Shown here in pieces: positions 24,641 to 29,426 of a DNA stretch of 64,000 bases. Below the pieces are notes generated by a model. It ran no database searches. It was given only the letters and a program-made list of their open reading frames with translations, and was not told where the DNA came from. Source of the stretch: Candidatus Obscuribacteraceae bacterium (GTDB lineage: Bacteria > Cyanobacteriota > Vampirovibrionia > Obscuribacterales > Obscuribacteraceae); NCBI GenBank assembly GCA_044226015.1, contig JBGAHS010000002.1, positions 787,435 to 851,434 on the forward strand, given 5' to 3'. The translations under genes and the position numbers were made by a program. How positions within the stretch are numbered: the first letter of the stretch is position 1; the number at the start of each line of letters is the position of its first letter.

Positions 24641-24901
24641 ATGACTGAAGAAGCAAAAAAACTCTATGAAATCGCCAGCAACACCGCCGTTAAATCCGCA
24701 GTGATGCACGTCCGAGTTAACGGACGAAGCAGAGACATAGCATTAGATCTTCTAGATATTTCCCCAAGCTCACCTGATGAATACATCAGAGAGAAGGTCG
24801 CTGCTTTTGTGGAATTGTCTCCGAAAGATCTTGAGTTCACAGTCGTAGAACGCCATGAAAATGGAAACATGACTGTGCGCCCAGAAGCGGTGTTCGGATG
24901 A
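24641..24901 (+). CDS. Small protein ending in Gly (RPEAVFG), candidate ubiquitin-like modifier
   Basis: 86 aa with strong RBS GGGAGG; beta-beta-alpha-beta-beta-like pattern; ATGA overlap with the next gene; same operon as ThiF. The Ubl identity is inferred. Confidence 0.65.
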   Translation: MTEEAKKLYEIASNTAVKSAVMHVRVNGRSRDIALDLLDISPSSPDEYIREKVAAFVELSPKDLEFTVVERHENGNMTVRPEAVFG

Positions 24902-25764
24902 AAAAGAGAGACGGATTCGATCCGCTCTCTCTTGTATCCAAAATTGCTGACAAAGAAAAGCAGCTAATCGGCTCAAAGTTTCTTGCGCCAAAATTAGGAA
25001 CAGGAAAAATTCGCCTGAAACTATCGGGAATCGCCTATCAGGTTGACGCCCCTGATAGCCCTGACGGTTGGGGAATATTCGAGCTAAAGGAAAATTCGAG
25101 GGCGACATATCTCGAAGCCGCACCACTAAACATGGTGCGGAACTATCTGCTTCTTTTGACGCAGGTCAGACTTGTTATTCTCGACAAATTCGAGAACGAT
25201 AACTGGTGGGCAATAGTCGCCGACCAGCAAGGACAAAAGCTACAGATTAACGGACCAGTGCCCGTACATTTAATTACACGCACAGCGCCATTCGAAACGG
25301 TTTACAGCCGCTTCGATGGAGCACAATTTTGGTTTGAATCAACAGACCGAAAGCGCGACCCGATGGTAGCAAACGAGTTACGAAAGTCACTTGAGAAAAA
25401 TACCGACCCGGCAGAACTTCAGTGCAAAGGCGCCGTGCCACAAGAGCGGCTCGCTTACAAGATCTTACATATGCGAAAAAATAAGGAGCGCGAAACTCCT
25501 GAGCCTCAAGACAACCGCAGTCGTATAAGTCGTGCGCTCGCTCACTCCGGCGCCGAACTTGATTCATTCTGGCAAGAACGCGATAGTAGTGTGACTACAG
25601 TTCGTTTTCGCATGGGAGATCAAGTGCGCGCTGTGAGTGTAAACACCGACAATCTTTCCGTTATAAGTTCGGGAATTTGTTTATCAGGAAGAGACAGCGA
25701 TTTCGACCTGAGCAGCCTTGTTGGGGTATTAAAAGAAGCAGAAGAAGATTACGACTACTACTAA
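24898..25764 (+). CDS. Hypothetical protein with C-terminal SGICLSGxD Cys motif
   Basis: 288 aa, translationally coupled to the upstream gene. Confidence 0.75.
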   Translation: MKKRDGFDPLSLVSKIADKEKQLIGSKFLAPKLGTGKIRLKLSGIAYQVDAPDSPDGWGIFELKENSRATYLEAAPLNMVRNYLLLLTQVRLVILDKFENDNWWAIVADQQGQKLQINGPVPVHLITRTAPFETVYSRFDGAQFWFESTDRKRDPMVANELRKSLEKNTDPAELQCKGAVPQERLAYKILHMRKNKERETPEPQDNRSRISRALAHSGAELDSFWQERDSSVTTVRFRMGDQVRAVSVNTDNLSVISSGICLSGRDSDFDLSSLVGVLKEAEEDYDYY

Positions 25765-25783: not shown

Positions 25784-26455
25784 ATGAGTCCAACAAAAAA
25801 AATCGAGCGAGCAAGAATGAGCAAACTTCATCACGAGAACATACACCGCGGCAGCGAAGCAATGAAAATGATTGCAAACCAACGACTCCATATTTGCGGA
25901 GCAGGCGCGATCGGCTCAAACCTGGCAATGAACTTAGTTAGAAGCGGATTCAAAAACCTGGTAATTATCGACAAAGACCGCGTTGAAGAAAAGAATCTGA
26001 GCACCCAGGCATATGGGCTTGACGATGTCGGCGGCAAGAAAGCAGACCTTCTAAGAAATTTGATCTTTCGCGACCTGGCCGAGAGTATAGACGCCCGCGC
26101 CGAAGAGCTGACCCACAATAATGTGAGCAAACTCCTAAAAGGAGCAAGCCTCGTGCTTGATGCTTTCGACAACGCCGCCTCGCGAAAGATTGTCTACGAA
26201 TTCTGCAAAGAAAATAGAATTGATTGCCTTCATGCTGGCGTGAATGGAGATTTTGCCGAGGTACGCTGGAACGAAAGCTACATCGTTCCACAAGAAAATG
26301 GACAAGACATCTGCGATTACCCGCTGGCGAGAAACTTGATCTTATTAACAGTTTCTGTGTGCAGCGAAACCCTTGTAAATTTTGTTCTCAAAACAAAGAA
26401 AGACAGTTTTTCAATCACACTGGGCGACATGTCCATAAATCACGAAACAGATTAG
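25784..26455 (+). CDS. ThiF/MoeB/E1-family adenylyltransferase
   Basis: GAGAIGS, DKDRVEEKNLSTQ, KK, DAFDN motifs; no CxxC zinc pairs. Confidence 0.9.
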   Translation: MSPTKKIERARMSKLHHENIHRGSEAMKMIANQRLHICGAGAIGSNLAMNLVRSGFKNLVIIDKDRVEEKNLSTQAYGLDDVGGKKADLLRNLIFRDLAESIDARAEELTHNNVSKLLKGASLVLDAFDNAASRKIVYEFCKENRIDCLHAGVNGDFAEVRWNESYIVPQENGQDICDYPLARNLILLTVSVCSETLVNFVLKTKKDSFSITLGDMSINHETD

Positions 26456-26475: not shown

Positions 26476-26504
26476 TTGACACACACACTTGCCTCTAATA
26501 AGAT
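26476..26504 (+). promoter_or_regulatory. Sigma70-like promoter P1 of the ncRNA array
   Basis: TTGACA-N17-TAAGAT. Confidence 0.7.
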
Positions 26505-26555
26505 GCCATAAGTGGTTGAGGTCATTTTCTGAGACCTCTCCGATAAGAGGAAAAA

Positions 26556-26640
26556 GCGTGAACGAAGACGGTCCGAGTTTTACAGCTTCAACTCGCCAGC
26601 AGGCGCTCGGCTAATAGCCGCTGCGTCCGTTTCAGCACGC
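26556..26640 (+). ncRNA. Y-RNA-like structured RNA A (family II)
   Basis: Closing stem GCGTG/CACGC; GAAGACGGTCCGAG...CAACTCGC...CTCGGCTAATAGCCG, shared with RNA C. Confidence 0.6.
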
Positions 26641-26673
26641 CTCGACACGCCACCACATTCGATACCAAACAAT

Positions 26674-26702
26674 TTGACAAAGCTTCTCTTACCTTGTAGG
26701 GT
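26674..26702 (+). promoter_or_regulatory. Sigma70-like promoter P2
   Basis: TTGACA-N17-TAGGGT, just upstream of RNA B. Confidence 0.55.
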
Positions 26703-26710
26703 AGTGATTA

Positions 26711-26805
26711 CCGCGTGTGTTCCGACACGTGGAGCCTTACAATCAGGTACTCACTGAGCTGAATCTTTACGCAGCGCGACAAGCTCCACGAACTTACACA
26801 GGCGG
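26711..26805 (+). ncRNA. Structured RNA B (divergent family I)
   Basis: CCGCGTGTG...CGTGGAGCcTTACAAT...GCTCCACGAACTTACACAGGCGG, nested stems. Confidence 0.6.
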
Positions 26806-26824
26806 CACTAAAAGGATGGTCATT

Positions 26825-26900
26825 GTGGCAGAAGACGGCCCGACACCGACAACTCGCTCTCACCTGGCACTCGGCTAATGCCGTTGTGCTGCTTTGCCAC
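26825..26900 (+). ncRNA. Y-RNA-like structured RNA C (family II)
   Basis: Closing stem GTGGCA/TGCCAC; GAAGACGGCCCGA...CAACTCGC...CTCGGCTAATGCCG. Confidence 0.6.
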
Positions 26901-26937
26901 GCGCAAAATGCGCCACCATATTTAGTATCATTTTCTG

Positions 26938-26966
26938 TTGACAGATTTGCAATTTCGATCTATTAT
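26938..26966 (+). promoter_or_regulatory. Sigma70-like promoter P3
   Basis: TTGACA-N17-TATTAT, about 8 nt before RNA D. Confidence 0.8.
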
Positions 26967-26974
26967 CAAAATTA

Positions 26975-27110
26975 CCAACTGTACTCAAACATTTGGAGCA
27001 TACAATCGCTTAGAACGAAAAGGTCGTGGGTTCGAATCCCACCGGGGCAGATGGCCCCGTAGCTCAGTGGATAGAGCGTTAAACTCTGCTCCCACAACTC
27101 GTACAGATGG
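26975..27110 (+). ncRNA. YrlA-like Y RNA D with circularly permuted tRNA module
   Basis: CTGTAC/GTACAG and GGAGC/GCTCC stems enclose a T arm (GTGGG TTCGAAT CCCAC), a loop-closed acceptor stem (CGGGGC agatg GCCCCG) and a D arm (TA GCTC AGTGGATA GAGC). Confidence 0.85.
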
Positions 27111-27233
27111 CATCGTTTAAGTAAGAGGAGGTCGCCAGTCGTTATAGTGGACACGGGTGACATAACATGGATCGATCCGAAACACGCGCCCGGTAGTGAC
27201 TGGAGCGCGTGCTCCTCGTTTAAATCGCATGCC
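27109..27233 (+). ncRNA. Long-hairpin structured RNA E
   Basis: Nested pairs GGCAT/ATGCC, GAGGAG/CTCCTC, CCAGTCGTTAT/GTAGTGACTGG. Confidence 0.55.
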
Positions 27234-27256
27234 ACTACATATGGTGCAACATTTAT

Positions 27257-27285
27257 TTGACAAACACCATTCGGCGATCTAAATT
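27257..27285 (+). promoter_or_regulatory. Sigma70-like promoter P4
   Basis: TTGACA-N17-TAAATT, just before RNA F. Confidence 0.7.
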
Positions 27286-27291
27286 AGTATT

Positions 27292-27423
27292 ACTGCCTGT
27301 ACTCAAACAGACTGAGCTTACAATCTGGTACATTTTCCGTAACTGGAGAATGAGGTTCGAATCCTCCCCTGGGCGGGGTTCCGTCCATCAAAACAAACAG
27401 CTCTTTCAACTCGTACAGGCAGT
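27292..27423 (+). ncRNA. Y-RNA-like RNA F (family I) with T-arm module
   Basis: ACTGCCTGTAC/GTACAGGCAGT 11-bp stem, GAGC/GCTC stem, internal GAGG TTCGAAT CCTC. Confidence 0.75.
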
Positions 27424-27432
27424 GAATTTTAC

Positions 27433-27570
27433 ACCAATGACTCGATGCACCAGCGAACGCGCATTGTTCCAACATTGACTCATAGGTGAGCTACTGGACC
27501 CAGGGCACCGTCCCGAGGGTCCCCGTAGACTTGGAAGAGTCGTCAGGTTTGCTTCTGCTCGAATTGTGGT
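27433..27570 (+). ncRNA. Possible long-hairpin RNA G
   Basis: Nested pairs ACCA/TGGT, AGCGAAC/GTTTGCT, TTCCAA/TTGGAA. Confidence 0.4.
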
Positions 27571-27583
27571 AATCTGGTTATAC

Positions 27584-27660
27584 GCCTGTACTCACTGCTC
27601 GAGCTTACAAACCTTTTCAAGTTAGAAACAGCTCTGGCGACTCGTACAGGCCCTTTTTTT
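27584..27660 (+). ncRNA. Minimal family I RNA H followed by a U-tract
   Basis: GCCTGTACTCA...GAGCTTACAA...AACAGCTC...ACTCGTACAGGC, then cc and a T run. Confidence 0.7.
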
Positions 27661-27668
27661 GCAAATTT

Positions 27669-29426
27669 TTGGTGAACACAATGAACAACGAGATCATTAA
27701 ATCTCTAGTAGATCTGGCCGTGCAGTCATTGCGCTCAATTGAGAATGAGCTGTTTGGCTCAAGACCCAACACGGCGCAGACACCACAGAGCCAATATCAG
27801 ACCACGTTCAACAGAAGCAATGGACGGGCACAAAGCAATAGGCGCACTAACAGCCGAAGAAGAACAGCACTCAATAGCAGCATTAGCAAAAGCAATGAAG
27901 AGGTAAGCAGCATGTTTGAATCACTAATAAATCAAACAGCTAATTCAAGTGAACAAGATTTCCGTCTGGCGATTCTCAACTCGTTGCTGCGCACACCACA
28001 CAGAGAGATCGAACCCTACATCCCTCTCTTTCGCTATGTGCATGACAGAGACCCTCTCTTCTTCGCGCACCTGGCTGTGTGGTACTTCGAAAACGGCACA
28101 GTGAGAGACTTGAAGCAACTTTTCGTCGCTTTTCTAGCTGTTTCAAAATTCTCAGACGAATTTCGCAGCGCCGGTGCAGCAATGCTACAAAAGATGGCAC
28201 CTTTCGAAGTAGAAAGAGTTCTTTCAATTATCAAAGGTCGCAAAACAAATGACGGAAAGAATGTCTCAGGTATTGTCGATACCGTACCACGTTCAGTGAA
28301 AACTACTATCGAACATTACTTGCGTGAACGCGAAAGCAATCGCGAAAATTTCGACCGTGTAGTTTTGCATGCACGCAAACCACTGAAAACACTTTATGCC
28401 TCACTGCGCATAAAGCCTGGTGAACACGCGCAGAAGGTGCTTTTCGACAATACTCCACCAGAGGACAGCAAACTATTTGCCCTCAAACTTATCGCAAAGA
28501 CTGATGACCCAACAGAGCAAGCAAAACTCATCGTTGAGCATGAGATTCCATACCGAGTGGCAATCTCAGGTTTGAAAAACGTGACACCTTCGGTTCTTAC
28601 AGCGCTTGTTTGCGCTATGACACCACAGGAGGTCATCAACAACCTTTCAAGCTTGCAAAAACGCGGGGCTATGCAAAACGAAGACTTGCGAAAAGTGATT
28701 GAATCAAAACTTGCCGATGCACAATCGGACAAGCGTGTTTCAGCTTTGAAAACCAGACAGGCACTTAAATCTGCAAATATCGATGAAAGCCTCGCTAAGA
28801 AAGTTGAGGCAGTCGGCGATAAGCAGATCAAAAACAAAGCCAAGATCAAAAAATCTACAGCATTATTGATCGATAAGTCTGGCTCGATGGAGATTGCAAT
28901 TGAAGTCGGTAAACAAACTGCGGCAATCATTGCACCAATTTGTGAAGCCGGTCTCTCTGTTTATGCTTTCGACACCATGTCTTACAAGATTGAACCTAAA
29001 ACAGGAAACAACTTATCTGATTGGGAGAAAGCATTCAAAGGCATCGCCGCTGGCGGTGGTACTTCGTGTGGTGTCTCAATCGAGGCGATGAGAAAACAAA
29101 AAGTAATTGCAGAGCAAATCATCATGGTCACCGACCAGGAAGAAAACAACCAGCCATACATGGCTACGGCTCTGCAAGCTTATGCAAATGAGTTCGGAGC
29201 AACTCCGGACATCATCATCGTGAACGTGGGACGCCACTCTCAGAGATTGGAGAAATCTCTAAGGCATGAGAACATCGCGGTCGACACCTTTGATTTCAAC
29301 GGCGACTACTACAGCTTGCCTAGCTTGCTGCCAATGCTTGCCGGTGGAACAAGGCTAGACTTGTTGATGGAAATCATGGATGTTCCATTGCCAGAACGCA
29401 GATTGCGCACACCTGCGATTGTGTGA
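27669..29426 (+). CDS. Ro60/TROVE-like helical domain plus vWA protein
   Basis: vWA MIDAS residues DKSGS...GGT...TD. The helical region has TROVE-like segments DPLFFAHLAVWY and MTPQEVINNL. Lies next to Y-like RNAs. Start may be 27669, 27681 or 27912. Confidence 0.78.
   Translation: MVNTMNNEIIKSLVDLAVQSLRSIENELFGSRPNTAQTPQSQYQTTFNRSNGRAQSNRRTNSRRRTALNSSISKSNEEVSSMFESLINQTANSSEQDFRLAILNSLLRTPHREIEPYIPLFRYVHDRDPLFFAHLAVWYFENGTVRDLKQLFVAFLAVSKFSDEFRSAGAAMLQKMAPFEVERVLSIIKGRKTNDGKNVSGIVDTVPRSVKTTIEHYLRERESNRENFDRVVLHARKPLKTLYASLRIKPGEHAQKVLFDNTPPEDSKLFALKLIAKTDDPTEQAKLIVEHEIPYRVAISGLKNVTPSVLTALVCAMTPQEVINNLSSLQKRGAMQNEDLRKVIESKLADAQSDKRVSALKTRQALKSANIDESLAKKVEAVGDKQIKNKAKIKKSTALLIDKSGSMEIAIEVGKQTAAIIAPICEAGLSVYAFDTMSYKIEPKTGNNLSDWEKAFKGIAAGGGTSCGVSIEAMRKQKVIAEQIIMVTDQEENNQPYMATALQAYANEFGATPDIIIVNVGRHSQRLEKSLRHENIAVDTFDFNGDYYSLPSLLPMLAGGTRLDLLMEIMDVPLPERRLRTPAIV

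Follow-up and report, generated by a model that had tools for sequence, protein, structure and literature searches.

A family of handle RNAs with differing payloads beside a divergent Ro60-fold protein gene in an Obscuribacteraceae bacterium and its relatives

Background

Y RNAs combine a terminal stem that binds Ro60 with an effector module that tethers another protein, as described in the available parts of PMC4201824, bioRxiv 10.1101/312249 and PMC12135203. The Ro60-binding motif of these RNAs is given as GNCGAAN0-1G on the 5' strand (available text of PMC4201824), and CGAA matters for Ro60 binding (available text of PMC12135203). In the bacterial YrlA and YrlB RNAs, which are found with Rsr, the terminal stem and its internal loop enclose the effector module, and several RNAs per locus lie on the strand of the Ro60-fold gene (PMC4201824 and bioRxiv 10.1101/312249, as far as available). 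Two further systems, the Deinococcus Yrn1/Rsr/PNPase complex (RYPER) and Ro60-Yrl1/2 of the Thermus phage phiLo, combine a Ro60 ring with long and minimal RNAs and with phage carriage (available parts of PMC12135203). tRNA-like RNAs also occur beside RNA-repair platform proteins in the b7a-tRNA and Rot/TROVE systems described by Burroughs and Aravind in 2016, to judge from their citation in bioRxiv 10.1101/312249 and PMC7824862. Long tRNA arrays are known from cyanobacteria (the trn operon; PMC8421152, PMC10272220) and from phages, and the array of PCC 7120 is induced by translation stress (PMC8421152); the available parts of the two articles on cyanobacterial arrays contain no mention of Ro60 or Y RNA.

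The RNAs described here, termed handle RNAs, share with YrlA and YrlB the terminal stem with internal loop, the occurrence of several RNAs per locus and the common strand with a Ro60-fold gene, and one of them shares with YrlA (Rfam RF02553) the T-acceptor-D permutation of its tRNA-like part. The Salmonella and Pseudomonas YrlA rows available in supplementary text 2 of PMC4201824 likewise show a YUAC-like sequence downstream of the inner stem and have AACUYG preceding the 3' stem strand. Unlike YrlA, the handle does not contain GNCGAA, its 5' strand reading GYRY-YCNNAY, and its protein partner fails both the TROVE and the Rsr profiles and has Arg in place of a conserved His. The family adds two tRNA topologies and 23S rRNA payloads, and its neighbours include genes for a likely ubiquitin-like protein, E1, JAB, L12 and RRF; RtcB was absent from the 93 bacterial neighbour proteins scanned. 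RYPER and phiLo differ in having the CGAA motif and in recruiting PNPase (available text of PMC12135203), whereas the handle family lacks CGAA and has no known client. Like the b7a-tRNA and Rot/TROVE systems, it places tRNA-like RNAs beside RNA-repair platform proteins, and some of its members sit within cyanobacterial and phage tRNA arrays. Judged from sequence, the handle RNAs appear to work like a Y RNA yet fail the YrlA tests on motif and score. Neither the handle nor its rRNA-fragment payloads were found described in the literature searched, although Burroughs and Aravind 2016 and Sim et al. 2020 may mention the protein subfamily.

Handle RNAs in the window

Four handle RNAs were located in the window, which is the whole 64,000-nt stretch of DNA that was analysed:

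26710..26805, + strand: handle RNA B, a diverged copy, supported by covariance model R1 and folding
26743-26782, + strand: payload of RNA B, 40 nt, two small hairpins
26974..27111, + strand: handle RNA D, with outer stem, internal loop, inner stem and permuted tRNA payload
27006..27087, + strand: payload of RNA D, with anticodon-like arm, variable loop, T arm, closed acceptor stem and D arm
27292..27423, + strand: handle RNA F, payload 27324-27399
27584..27651, + strand: handle RNA H, with a 20-nt payload followed by a T run, directly upstream of the Ro60-like gene

The original prediction was that D, F and H share one motif, and this motif was read in the sequence as claimed. Its 5' half is CTGTACTCA-N8-GAGCATACAA in D (26979) and is spaced by N8 in F (27297) and by N6 in H (27586), and its 3' half, GCTC-N5-ACTCGTACAG, lies at 27088 (D), 27400 (F) and 27631 (H). 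As in Y RNAs, the two ends of the RNA are complementary and form a stem that contains an internal loop. The predicted order of outer stem, internal loop and inner stem was confirmed, although the inner stem is larger than the GAGC/GCTC originally proposed and comprises about 8 bp, four variable pairs plus GAGC/GCUC. The proposal that B is a diverged copy was borne out by R1, which gave 42.3 bits for B, 36.0 for D, 53.0 for F and 60.5 for H (RNA H belonged to the training set of the model), with 18.8 bits for the best other match in the window. Folding z-scores against shuffles were -3.89 (B), -3.26 (D), -4.62 (F) and -3.26 (H), and seven T follow H.

The whole genome (8,189,434 bases) contained three matches to the extended 5' half and three to the extended 3' half, all of them in this cluster. 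A generalised search for the motif with pairing returned five elements: the four RNAs of the window and a fifth element, on contig C3, which on reading lacked the conserved loops. The handle is therefore not scattered genome-wide in the manner of a REP or BIME element, being present in four copies in a single cluster.

Conservation, covariation and association with the Ro60-like gene

Relatives were collected as 80 loci around homologues of the Ro60-like protein (the best 80 of 172), which together with the window made 81 sources. Handle elements numbered 172 in 67 of the 81 sources (best 80 of 172 loci plus the window), 169 of them on the strand of the Ro60-like gene. When 11 of the 14 sources without an element were run with R1, six had a short handle before the gene and five had none; R1 misses long payloads, as in locus L040, where an element visible by eye gave no R1 match. 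In 54 of the 80 loci (best 80 of 172), the start of the Ro60-like gene has a handle no more than 350 nt upstream of it. In the window, the handle RNAs lie 0.3-1.2 kb upstream of the gene and on the same strand, inside the approximately 4 kb expected of a Y RNA.

Because circularity was to be avoided, covariation was assessed on elements found by loop sequence alone, without a pairing filter. This search yielded 239 elements and 189 distinct handles. Pairing at the positions of the outer stem was 73-99%, compared with 40-99% when partners were shuffled, and exceeded the shuffle maximum at seven of eight positions. In the inner core, the first pair was AU in 107 handles and GC in 60, and the fourth variable pair did no better than shuffles among the 189 distinct handles. 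In alignment A2 (32 sequences), 87% of positions were paired, with two-sided changes in 13 of 18 pairs, which was reached by 0 of 500 shuffles, and slid controls gave 24-46%. Alignment A6 was 83% paired with two-sided changes in 14 of 18 pairs; here the number of pairs was reached by 25 of 500 shuffles and the pair types by 212 of 500. The covariation called for by the original prediction was thus strong, both in the 189 unfiltered handles and by pair counts, and it extends across phyla. The consensus comprises an outer stem, a 5' loop YCNNAY, an inner stem of about 8 bp ending in GC/GC, WUACA, the payload and a 3' loop RACUY.

Among 71 genomes of the order, the gene was present in 24 and the 5' handle pattern in 23; both occurred in 22, the gene only in two, the handle only in one and neither in 46. 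The anticipated association with this vWA family was therefore seen, the pattern occurring in 22 of 24 gene-bearing against 1 of 47 gene-free genomes, which are relatives and not independent of one another. The reversed pattern, used as a control, gave five matches against 67. No genome searched held more than 10 matches to the pattern, and some copies were unlinked to the Ro60-like gene. At canonical TROVE loci, the handle was found in 0 of 11 (1.5-kb flanks), and 4 of the 11 had YrlA-like matches below the gathering threshold.

The divergent Ro60-fold protein and neighbouring genes

The following protein-coding genes were considered around the handle RNAs:

24641..24901, + strand: small protein ending RPEAVFG, a candidate ubiquitin-like protein
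24898..25764, + strand: 288-aa conserved protein, beta-rich, with weak likeness to OB folds
25784..26455, + strand: ThiF/E1-like adenylyltransferase (PF00899, 103 bits)
27912..29426, + strand: Ro60-fold protein, 504 aa, conserved start at 27912, frame open from 27669

The 504-aa protein consists of helical repeats (about residues 1-309) and a vWA domain (about 313-480) with a DKSGS MIDAS motif, the combination of helical-repeat ring and MIDAS-bearing vWA domain that characterises Ro60/Rsr. Family profiles placed it at a distance: the Pfam vWA_Ro60 match was weak (19 bits against a cut-off of 27.7), PF05731 (TROVE) gave no match, and the NCBIfam Rsr model NF041674 gave 12.3 bits against a cut-off of 900. 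A profile of 97 homologues nevertheless found the phage, human, Xenopus and Deinococcus Ro60 proteins in the PDB (E 3e-5 to 0.06), and hhalign against 10 canonical TROVE proteins gave 98.5%. The predicted structure (pLDDT 90) was compared using Foldseek, and the top 11 among the matches listed were all Ro60 (E 1.5e-11, TM 0.56-0.65, approximately 500 columns). The earlier description of this neighbour as Ro60-like therefore holds for the fold over the full length of the predicted structure. The His of the canonical RDALRLAHxxP motif contacts Y RNA, and a near-invariant Arg166 aligns with it. The gene is single in the genome (92% complete), in which no canonical TROVE gene was found, and belongs to a large family (2817 of 7999 scored candidates). 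Two Ro60-like paralogues were observed in some genomes (loci L022, L049 and L056; genomes G023, G027, G057 and G067).

The small protein is likely ubiquitin-like on the basis of its sequence, its terminal Gly being invariant in alignment A5; it gave no useful PDB match, and its matches in the Atlas were unnamed clusters only. No E2-like gene was found in the putative ubiquitin-like operon set. The 288-aa protein was considered as an E2 and rejected (no PDB sequence match, no Atlas match, OB-like fold matches with TM up to 0.27). Across the 81 sources (best 80 of 172 loci plus the window), the neighbours included the 288-aa protein (41), ThiF (40), the small Gly-ending protein (37), a 241-aa protein (25) and an L7/L12 paralogue (21). 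JAB, RNA ligase, NADAR and endonuclease V genes were also encountered among 93 bacterial neighbour proteins scanned, which contained no RtcB; JAB occurs in relatives and phages and is absent from the window operon. The 241-aa protein is a conserved basic protein without a Pfam match and lies among cyanobacterial handle RNAs (L045:4357-5085 and 24 other loci).

The Ro60-like gene was present on 12 viral contigs, mostly of 100-570 kb, and R1 matched in 9 of the 11 that were searched. Viral handles are often located in tRNA arrays, beside genes for the small protein, the 288-aa protein, JAB and ThiF. In two phage loci, L100 and L107, the Ro60-like gene is followed by an RRF gene (46 proteins scanned). 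At L107, an element resembling a handle and bearing a helix-70-like motif was recognised by eye and missed by R1. Long tRNA arrays of cyanobacteria likewise contain handle RNAs, and in one case a complete system follows an array of 26 tRNAs. The PCC 7120 trn operon was considered as an expressed example and set aside, as it contains no handle RNA. Within the genome of the window, an array of 18 tRNA genes was noted on another contig (G000:C10:356333-358584), and no handle element was found there. An 84-nt, handle-free RNA resembling the tRNA-like domain of tmRNA, with a CCA end, was seen beside the system at L045:3379-3462 and L047:3027-3110.

Promoter-like sites

Three promoter-like sites precede handle RNAs in the window:

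26674..26702, + strand: promoter-like site that precedes B, with TTGACA, 17 nt and a weak -10, read by eye and not in the promoter scan
26938..26966, + strand: Sigma70-type promoter-like site of D, 11/12 matches, with transcription predicted to begin at base 1 of D
27257..27285, + strand: Sigma70-type promoter-like site of F, 10/12 matches, with transcription predicted to begin at base 1 of F

By position, these sites lend support to the putative discrete transcripts on which the original prediction depends. Handle copies far from the gene also have promoter-like sites of their own. The 61 elements of Obscuribacterales-type loci yielded 42 -10-like boxes at a distance of 10-14 nt upstream of the conserved G, together with 30 -35 boxes at 34-37 nt; the remaining 173 elements, outside such loci, showed no promoter-box peak. 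An imperfect palindrome immediately precedes the -35 box in each of the promoters of B, D and F (26649-26667, 26912-26930 and 27231-27249), and likewise in promoters of relatives. It has 30 copies in the genome, 13 of them inside ORFs, against 0 in the control, and it presumably resembles an NrdR box. The TrcR operator was ruled out as its identity, since the published motif differs.

tRNA-like payloads

The original prediction assigned four different payloads to the handle, and these were largely upheld. The proposed Rfam search returned for RNA D a match to YrlA (RF02553) that was confined to the tRNA-like part (24-84 of the 114 model positions), at 42.9 bits, below the gathering threshold of 69. 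The payload is a T-acceptor-D tRNA-like domain with the YrlA-type permutation, which was not encountered in B, F or H, and after re-circularisation it was called as a tRNA by ARAGORN, most often Leu(UAG); the Rfam and ARAGORN results together support its description as a permuted tRNA. Its anticodon-like arm is short (3 bp, loop CUUAGAA) and its acceptor is closed. The T arm predicted for RNA F is present, but the payload holds more than a T-arm module: UGGU, an anticodon-like hairpin, the T arm with an invariant T-loop and an acceptor-like hairpin, without a D stem. Because these retained modules align with a class of payloads opened in the D-loop, F is likely a degenerate tRNA permutation of that class, although ARAGORN did not call it a tRNA after joining of the payload ends. 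RNA H is, as predicted, a bare handle closed by a 20-nt payload, and the payload of B is indeed unrelated, its two small hairpins giving no tRNA or rRNA match. None of the payloads B, D, F and H matched rRNA above shuffles, and no linear cloverleaf tRNA (ARAGORN, RF00005) was found in the region.

For the family as a whole, once the payload ends had been joined, ARAGORN called a junction-spanning tRNA in 86 of the 108 payloads and in 0 of 108 shuffled ones, and 30 of the 108 were also called as tRNA in linear order. Three tRNA topologies were distinguished, opened near the anticodon arm (36 of 37 in that class, including D), at the acceptor end or in the D-loop (L050, L059 and L052). The regex-based class labels are rough, many 'T-only' payloads being tRNA bodies in normal order. 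Payload anticodons are highly variable and drift freely, stop-reading ones included. The arm named 'V' in YrlA (27006-27018 in the window, and its relatives) carries a loop of 7 nt that has the shape of an anticodon loop, as do several rows of the Chen 2014 alignment. Two more conserved payload classes without an rRNA or tRNA match were noted, one at L025:5785, L080:5727, L076:5691 and L130:6811 and the other at L006:5490, L008:5517 and L009:5538.

23S rRNA payloads in relatives

Payloads resembling 23S rRNA were found in relatives and are absent from the 64-kb window. A 155-nt payload of cyanobacterial relatives scored above gathering against the Rfam LSU rRNA model at the L11-binding domain in four of five loci scanned, and it begins with an exact sarcin-ricin loop (significant in 15 of 16). 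This payload occurred in 21 of the 80 loci (best 80 of 172), with the loop and the 5' handle in 20 and the 3' handle in all 21. The positions matching C1072, C1092 and G1099 are U, U and A in 21 of 21 L11-domain payloads, and C, C and G are retained in 22 true rRNA copies (5/5 genomes). These three bases interact within the 23S fold (available text of PMC2952862). Helices 42-44 of the payload are 98-100% paired, with compensatory changes. Since the three-base compensatory switch is absent from host rRNA and helices 42-44 remain paired, the sequence argues for a folded mimic of the L11 domain; the 21 loci are related to each other. Helix 97 had been seen by eye within this payload and was unsupported on testing. 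No small RNA mimicking the factor-binding centre of the ribosome was found in the literature searched.

A second payload, of 131 nt, resembles helix 69-71 (scores 40-54 against shuffle maxima of 30-35) and occurred in 13 of the 80 loci (best 80 of 172). Circular permutation of helices 67-71 in it is suggestive only, 3 of the 13 reaching 2% of shuffles or better. The L7/L12 paralogue and the L11-domain RNA occurred together in 13 of the 80 loci (best 80 of 172) and singly in eight and eight, with neither in 51, a loose link that is confined to cyanobacteria.

Interpretation

The reading that we favour, at a probability of about 0.55, is that these RNAs form one family, that the handle likely binds the Ro60-fold protein, and that the tRNA- and rRNA-shaped payloads would tether reader proteins to the ring during translation stress. 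A single protein could in this way trap a wide range of factors acting in protein synthesis. Because the CGAA motif is absent, the proposed binding of the handle to Ro60 rests on association and architecture. Transcription would proceed from the adjacent promoters or within tRNA-array transcripts, and the invariant loop bases (5' YCNNAY, 3' RACUY, WUACA) would bind the helix that carries Arg166 at the position of the canonical His. The exposed faces would differ, D offering an elbow and acceptor, F an anticodon-like arm and T arm, and relatives the factor-binding centre or helix 69-71, so that the captured clients may differ from payload to payload and could include repair or decay enzymes, translation factors or ribosomal proteins. 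A bare handle, as in H, might gate or titrate the ring. The weakest step is what the putative ubiquitin-like/E1 set would do to a captured client. The original prediction had also offered the swappable part as a guide, which was unsupported, the payloads that could be identified being structural mimics.

To our knowledge, the client of the tRNA-like module in known bacterial Y RNAs is largely unknown. Because one handle carries several tRNA topologies and 23S pieces, what a Y RNA effector module recruits would become directly testable by payload swaps. The matched change of RNA motif and protein motif may represent a second Ro60 recognition code and offer an orthogonal RNA scaffold, and the family would account for odd stop-anticodon 'tRNA' calls and short 'LSU rRNA' matches in cyanobacterial and phage genomes.

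For H only, and compatibly with tethering, a cis-acting leader element is possible but somewhat doubtful: the protein, once bound, would make the stem that precedes the run of U more stable and so stop its own synthesis. Short handles lie within 350 nt upstream in 41 of the 80 loci (best 80 of 172), many about 36-38 nt from the start, and H is followed by its seven T; however, short handles also occur alone, distant from the gene and with -10 boxes of their own, T runs are about equally frequent after long and short elements, and the terminator scan found none.

Less well supported than tethering, and unlikely on the present evidence, is a decoy, in which RNAs protected by Ro60 would bait ribotoxins (anticodon nucleases and nucleases of the sarcin-ricin loop or helix 69) and the toxin would be titrated or given a ubiquitin-like tag via E1. 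Anticodon loops and the sarcin-ricin loop are common toxin targets, and the payloads offer highly variable anticodon loops together with the exact sarcin-ricin loop (15/16 significant). Genes for the small Gly-ending protein, for E1 and for JAB accompany the system, which resides in tRNA arrays of phages and in the long tRNA arrays of cyanobacteria, the latter induced by translation stress in PCC 7120 (available text of PMC8421152). Against this, no E2-like gene was found, bare handles carry no bait, and the 3-bp anticodon-like arm and closed acceptor make D a poor copy of a toxin substrate; the L12 and RRF paralogues fit partner recruitment equally well. A broader form of this proposal would make the system a second Ro60-Y RNA lineage of bacteria and large phages, in which one handle displays miniature translation parts as bait for ribotoxins or translation factors that are then passed to ubiquitin-like tagging; we regard this, too, as improbable. 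The parts on display would be a tRNA opened at three points, the sarcin-ricin/L11-L10 stalk base with L7/L12, and helix 69-71 with RRF, an assignment that is speculative to a similar degree. If true, this would be an RNA-programmed, shape-guided trap against attackers of the ribosome.

It is decidedly unlikely that the handle is bound by another operon protein instead of the Ro60-like one. The most plausible such binder is the 288-aa beta-rich protein, which is present in 41 of the 81 sources (best 80 of 172 loci plus the window) and has a weak likeness to OB-fold nucleic-acid-binding proteins, and the RNA lacks the canonical Ro60 motif. However, at L011 and L013-L017 the handle directly precedes the Ro60-like gene with no 288-aa gene in the flanks examined, 54 of 80 loci (best 80 of 172) have a handle no more than 350 nt ahead of the Ro60-like start, and the architecture of the handle matches YrlA. 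That the handle is a scaffold on which reserve tRNAs are stored or processed and then released is very improbable: 30 of 108 payloads are tRNAs in linear order and some lie within tRNA arrays, but anticodons drift freely to include stop-reading ones, permuted and rRNA payloads could not be released as tRNAs, and the window has no linear tRNA payload. A REP-like repeat or small mobile element holding decayed tRNA and rRNA fragments, as the copies unlinked to the gene might suggest, is largely refuted by the maximum of 10 pattern matches per genome searched, the 169 of 172 elements on the strand of the gene, the compensatory changes in handle and payload and the three-base switch in 21 of 21 L11-domain copies.

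Other elements between the handle RNAs

Further elements were observed in the intervals between the handle RNAs. Element G (27430-27578), between F and H, forms a long stem (z -2.5), and no conserved relative of it was found. Element C (26812-26925) gave a marginal score against rRNA, 31 against a shuffle maximum of 30. Elements A (26510-26655) and C resemble each other and lack the handle, and a relative of the pair lies in L044 near 5022; A has its own promoter-like site at 26476 and holds GGUCCGAG, which resembles the canonical Ro60 site. Element E (27110-27240), which follows D, folds well (z -3.66), contains the T-loop-like GGAUCGAUCC and is conserved 3' of the D-type RNA in L001, L003 and L044.
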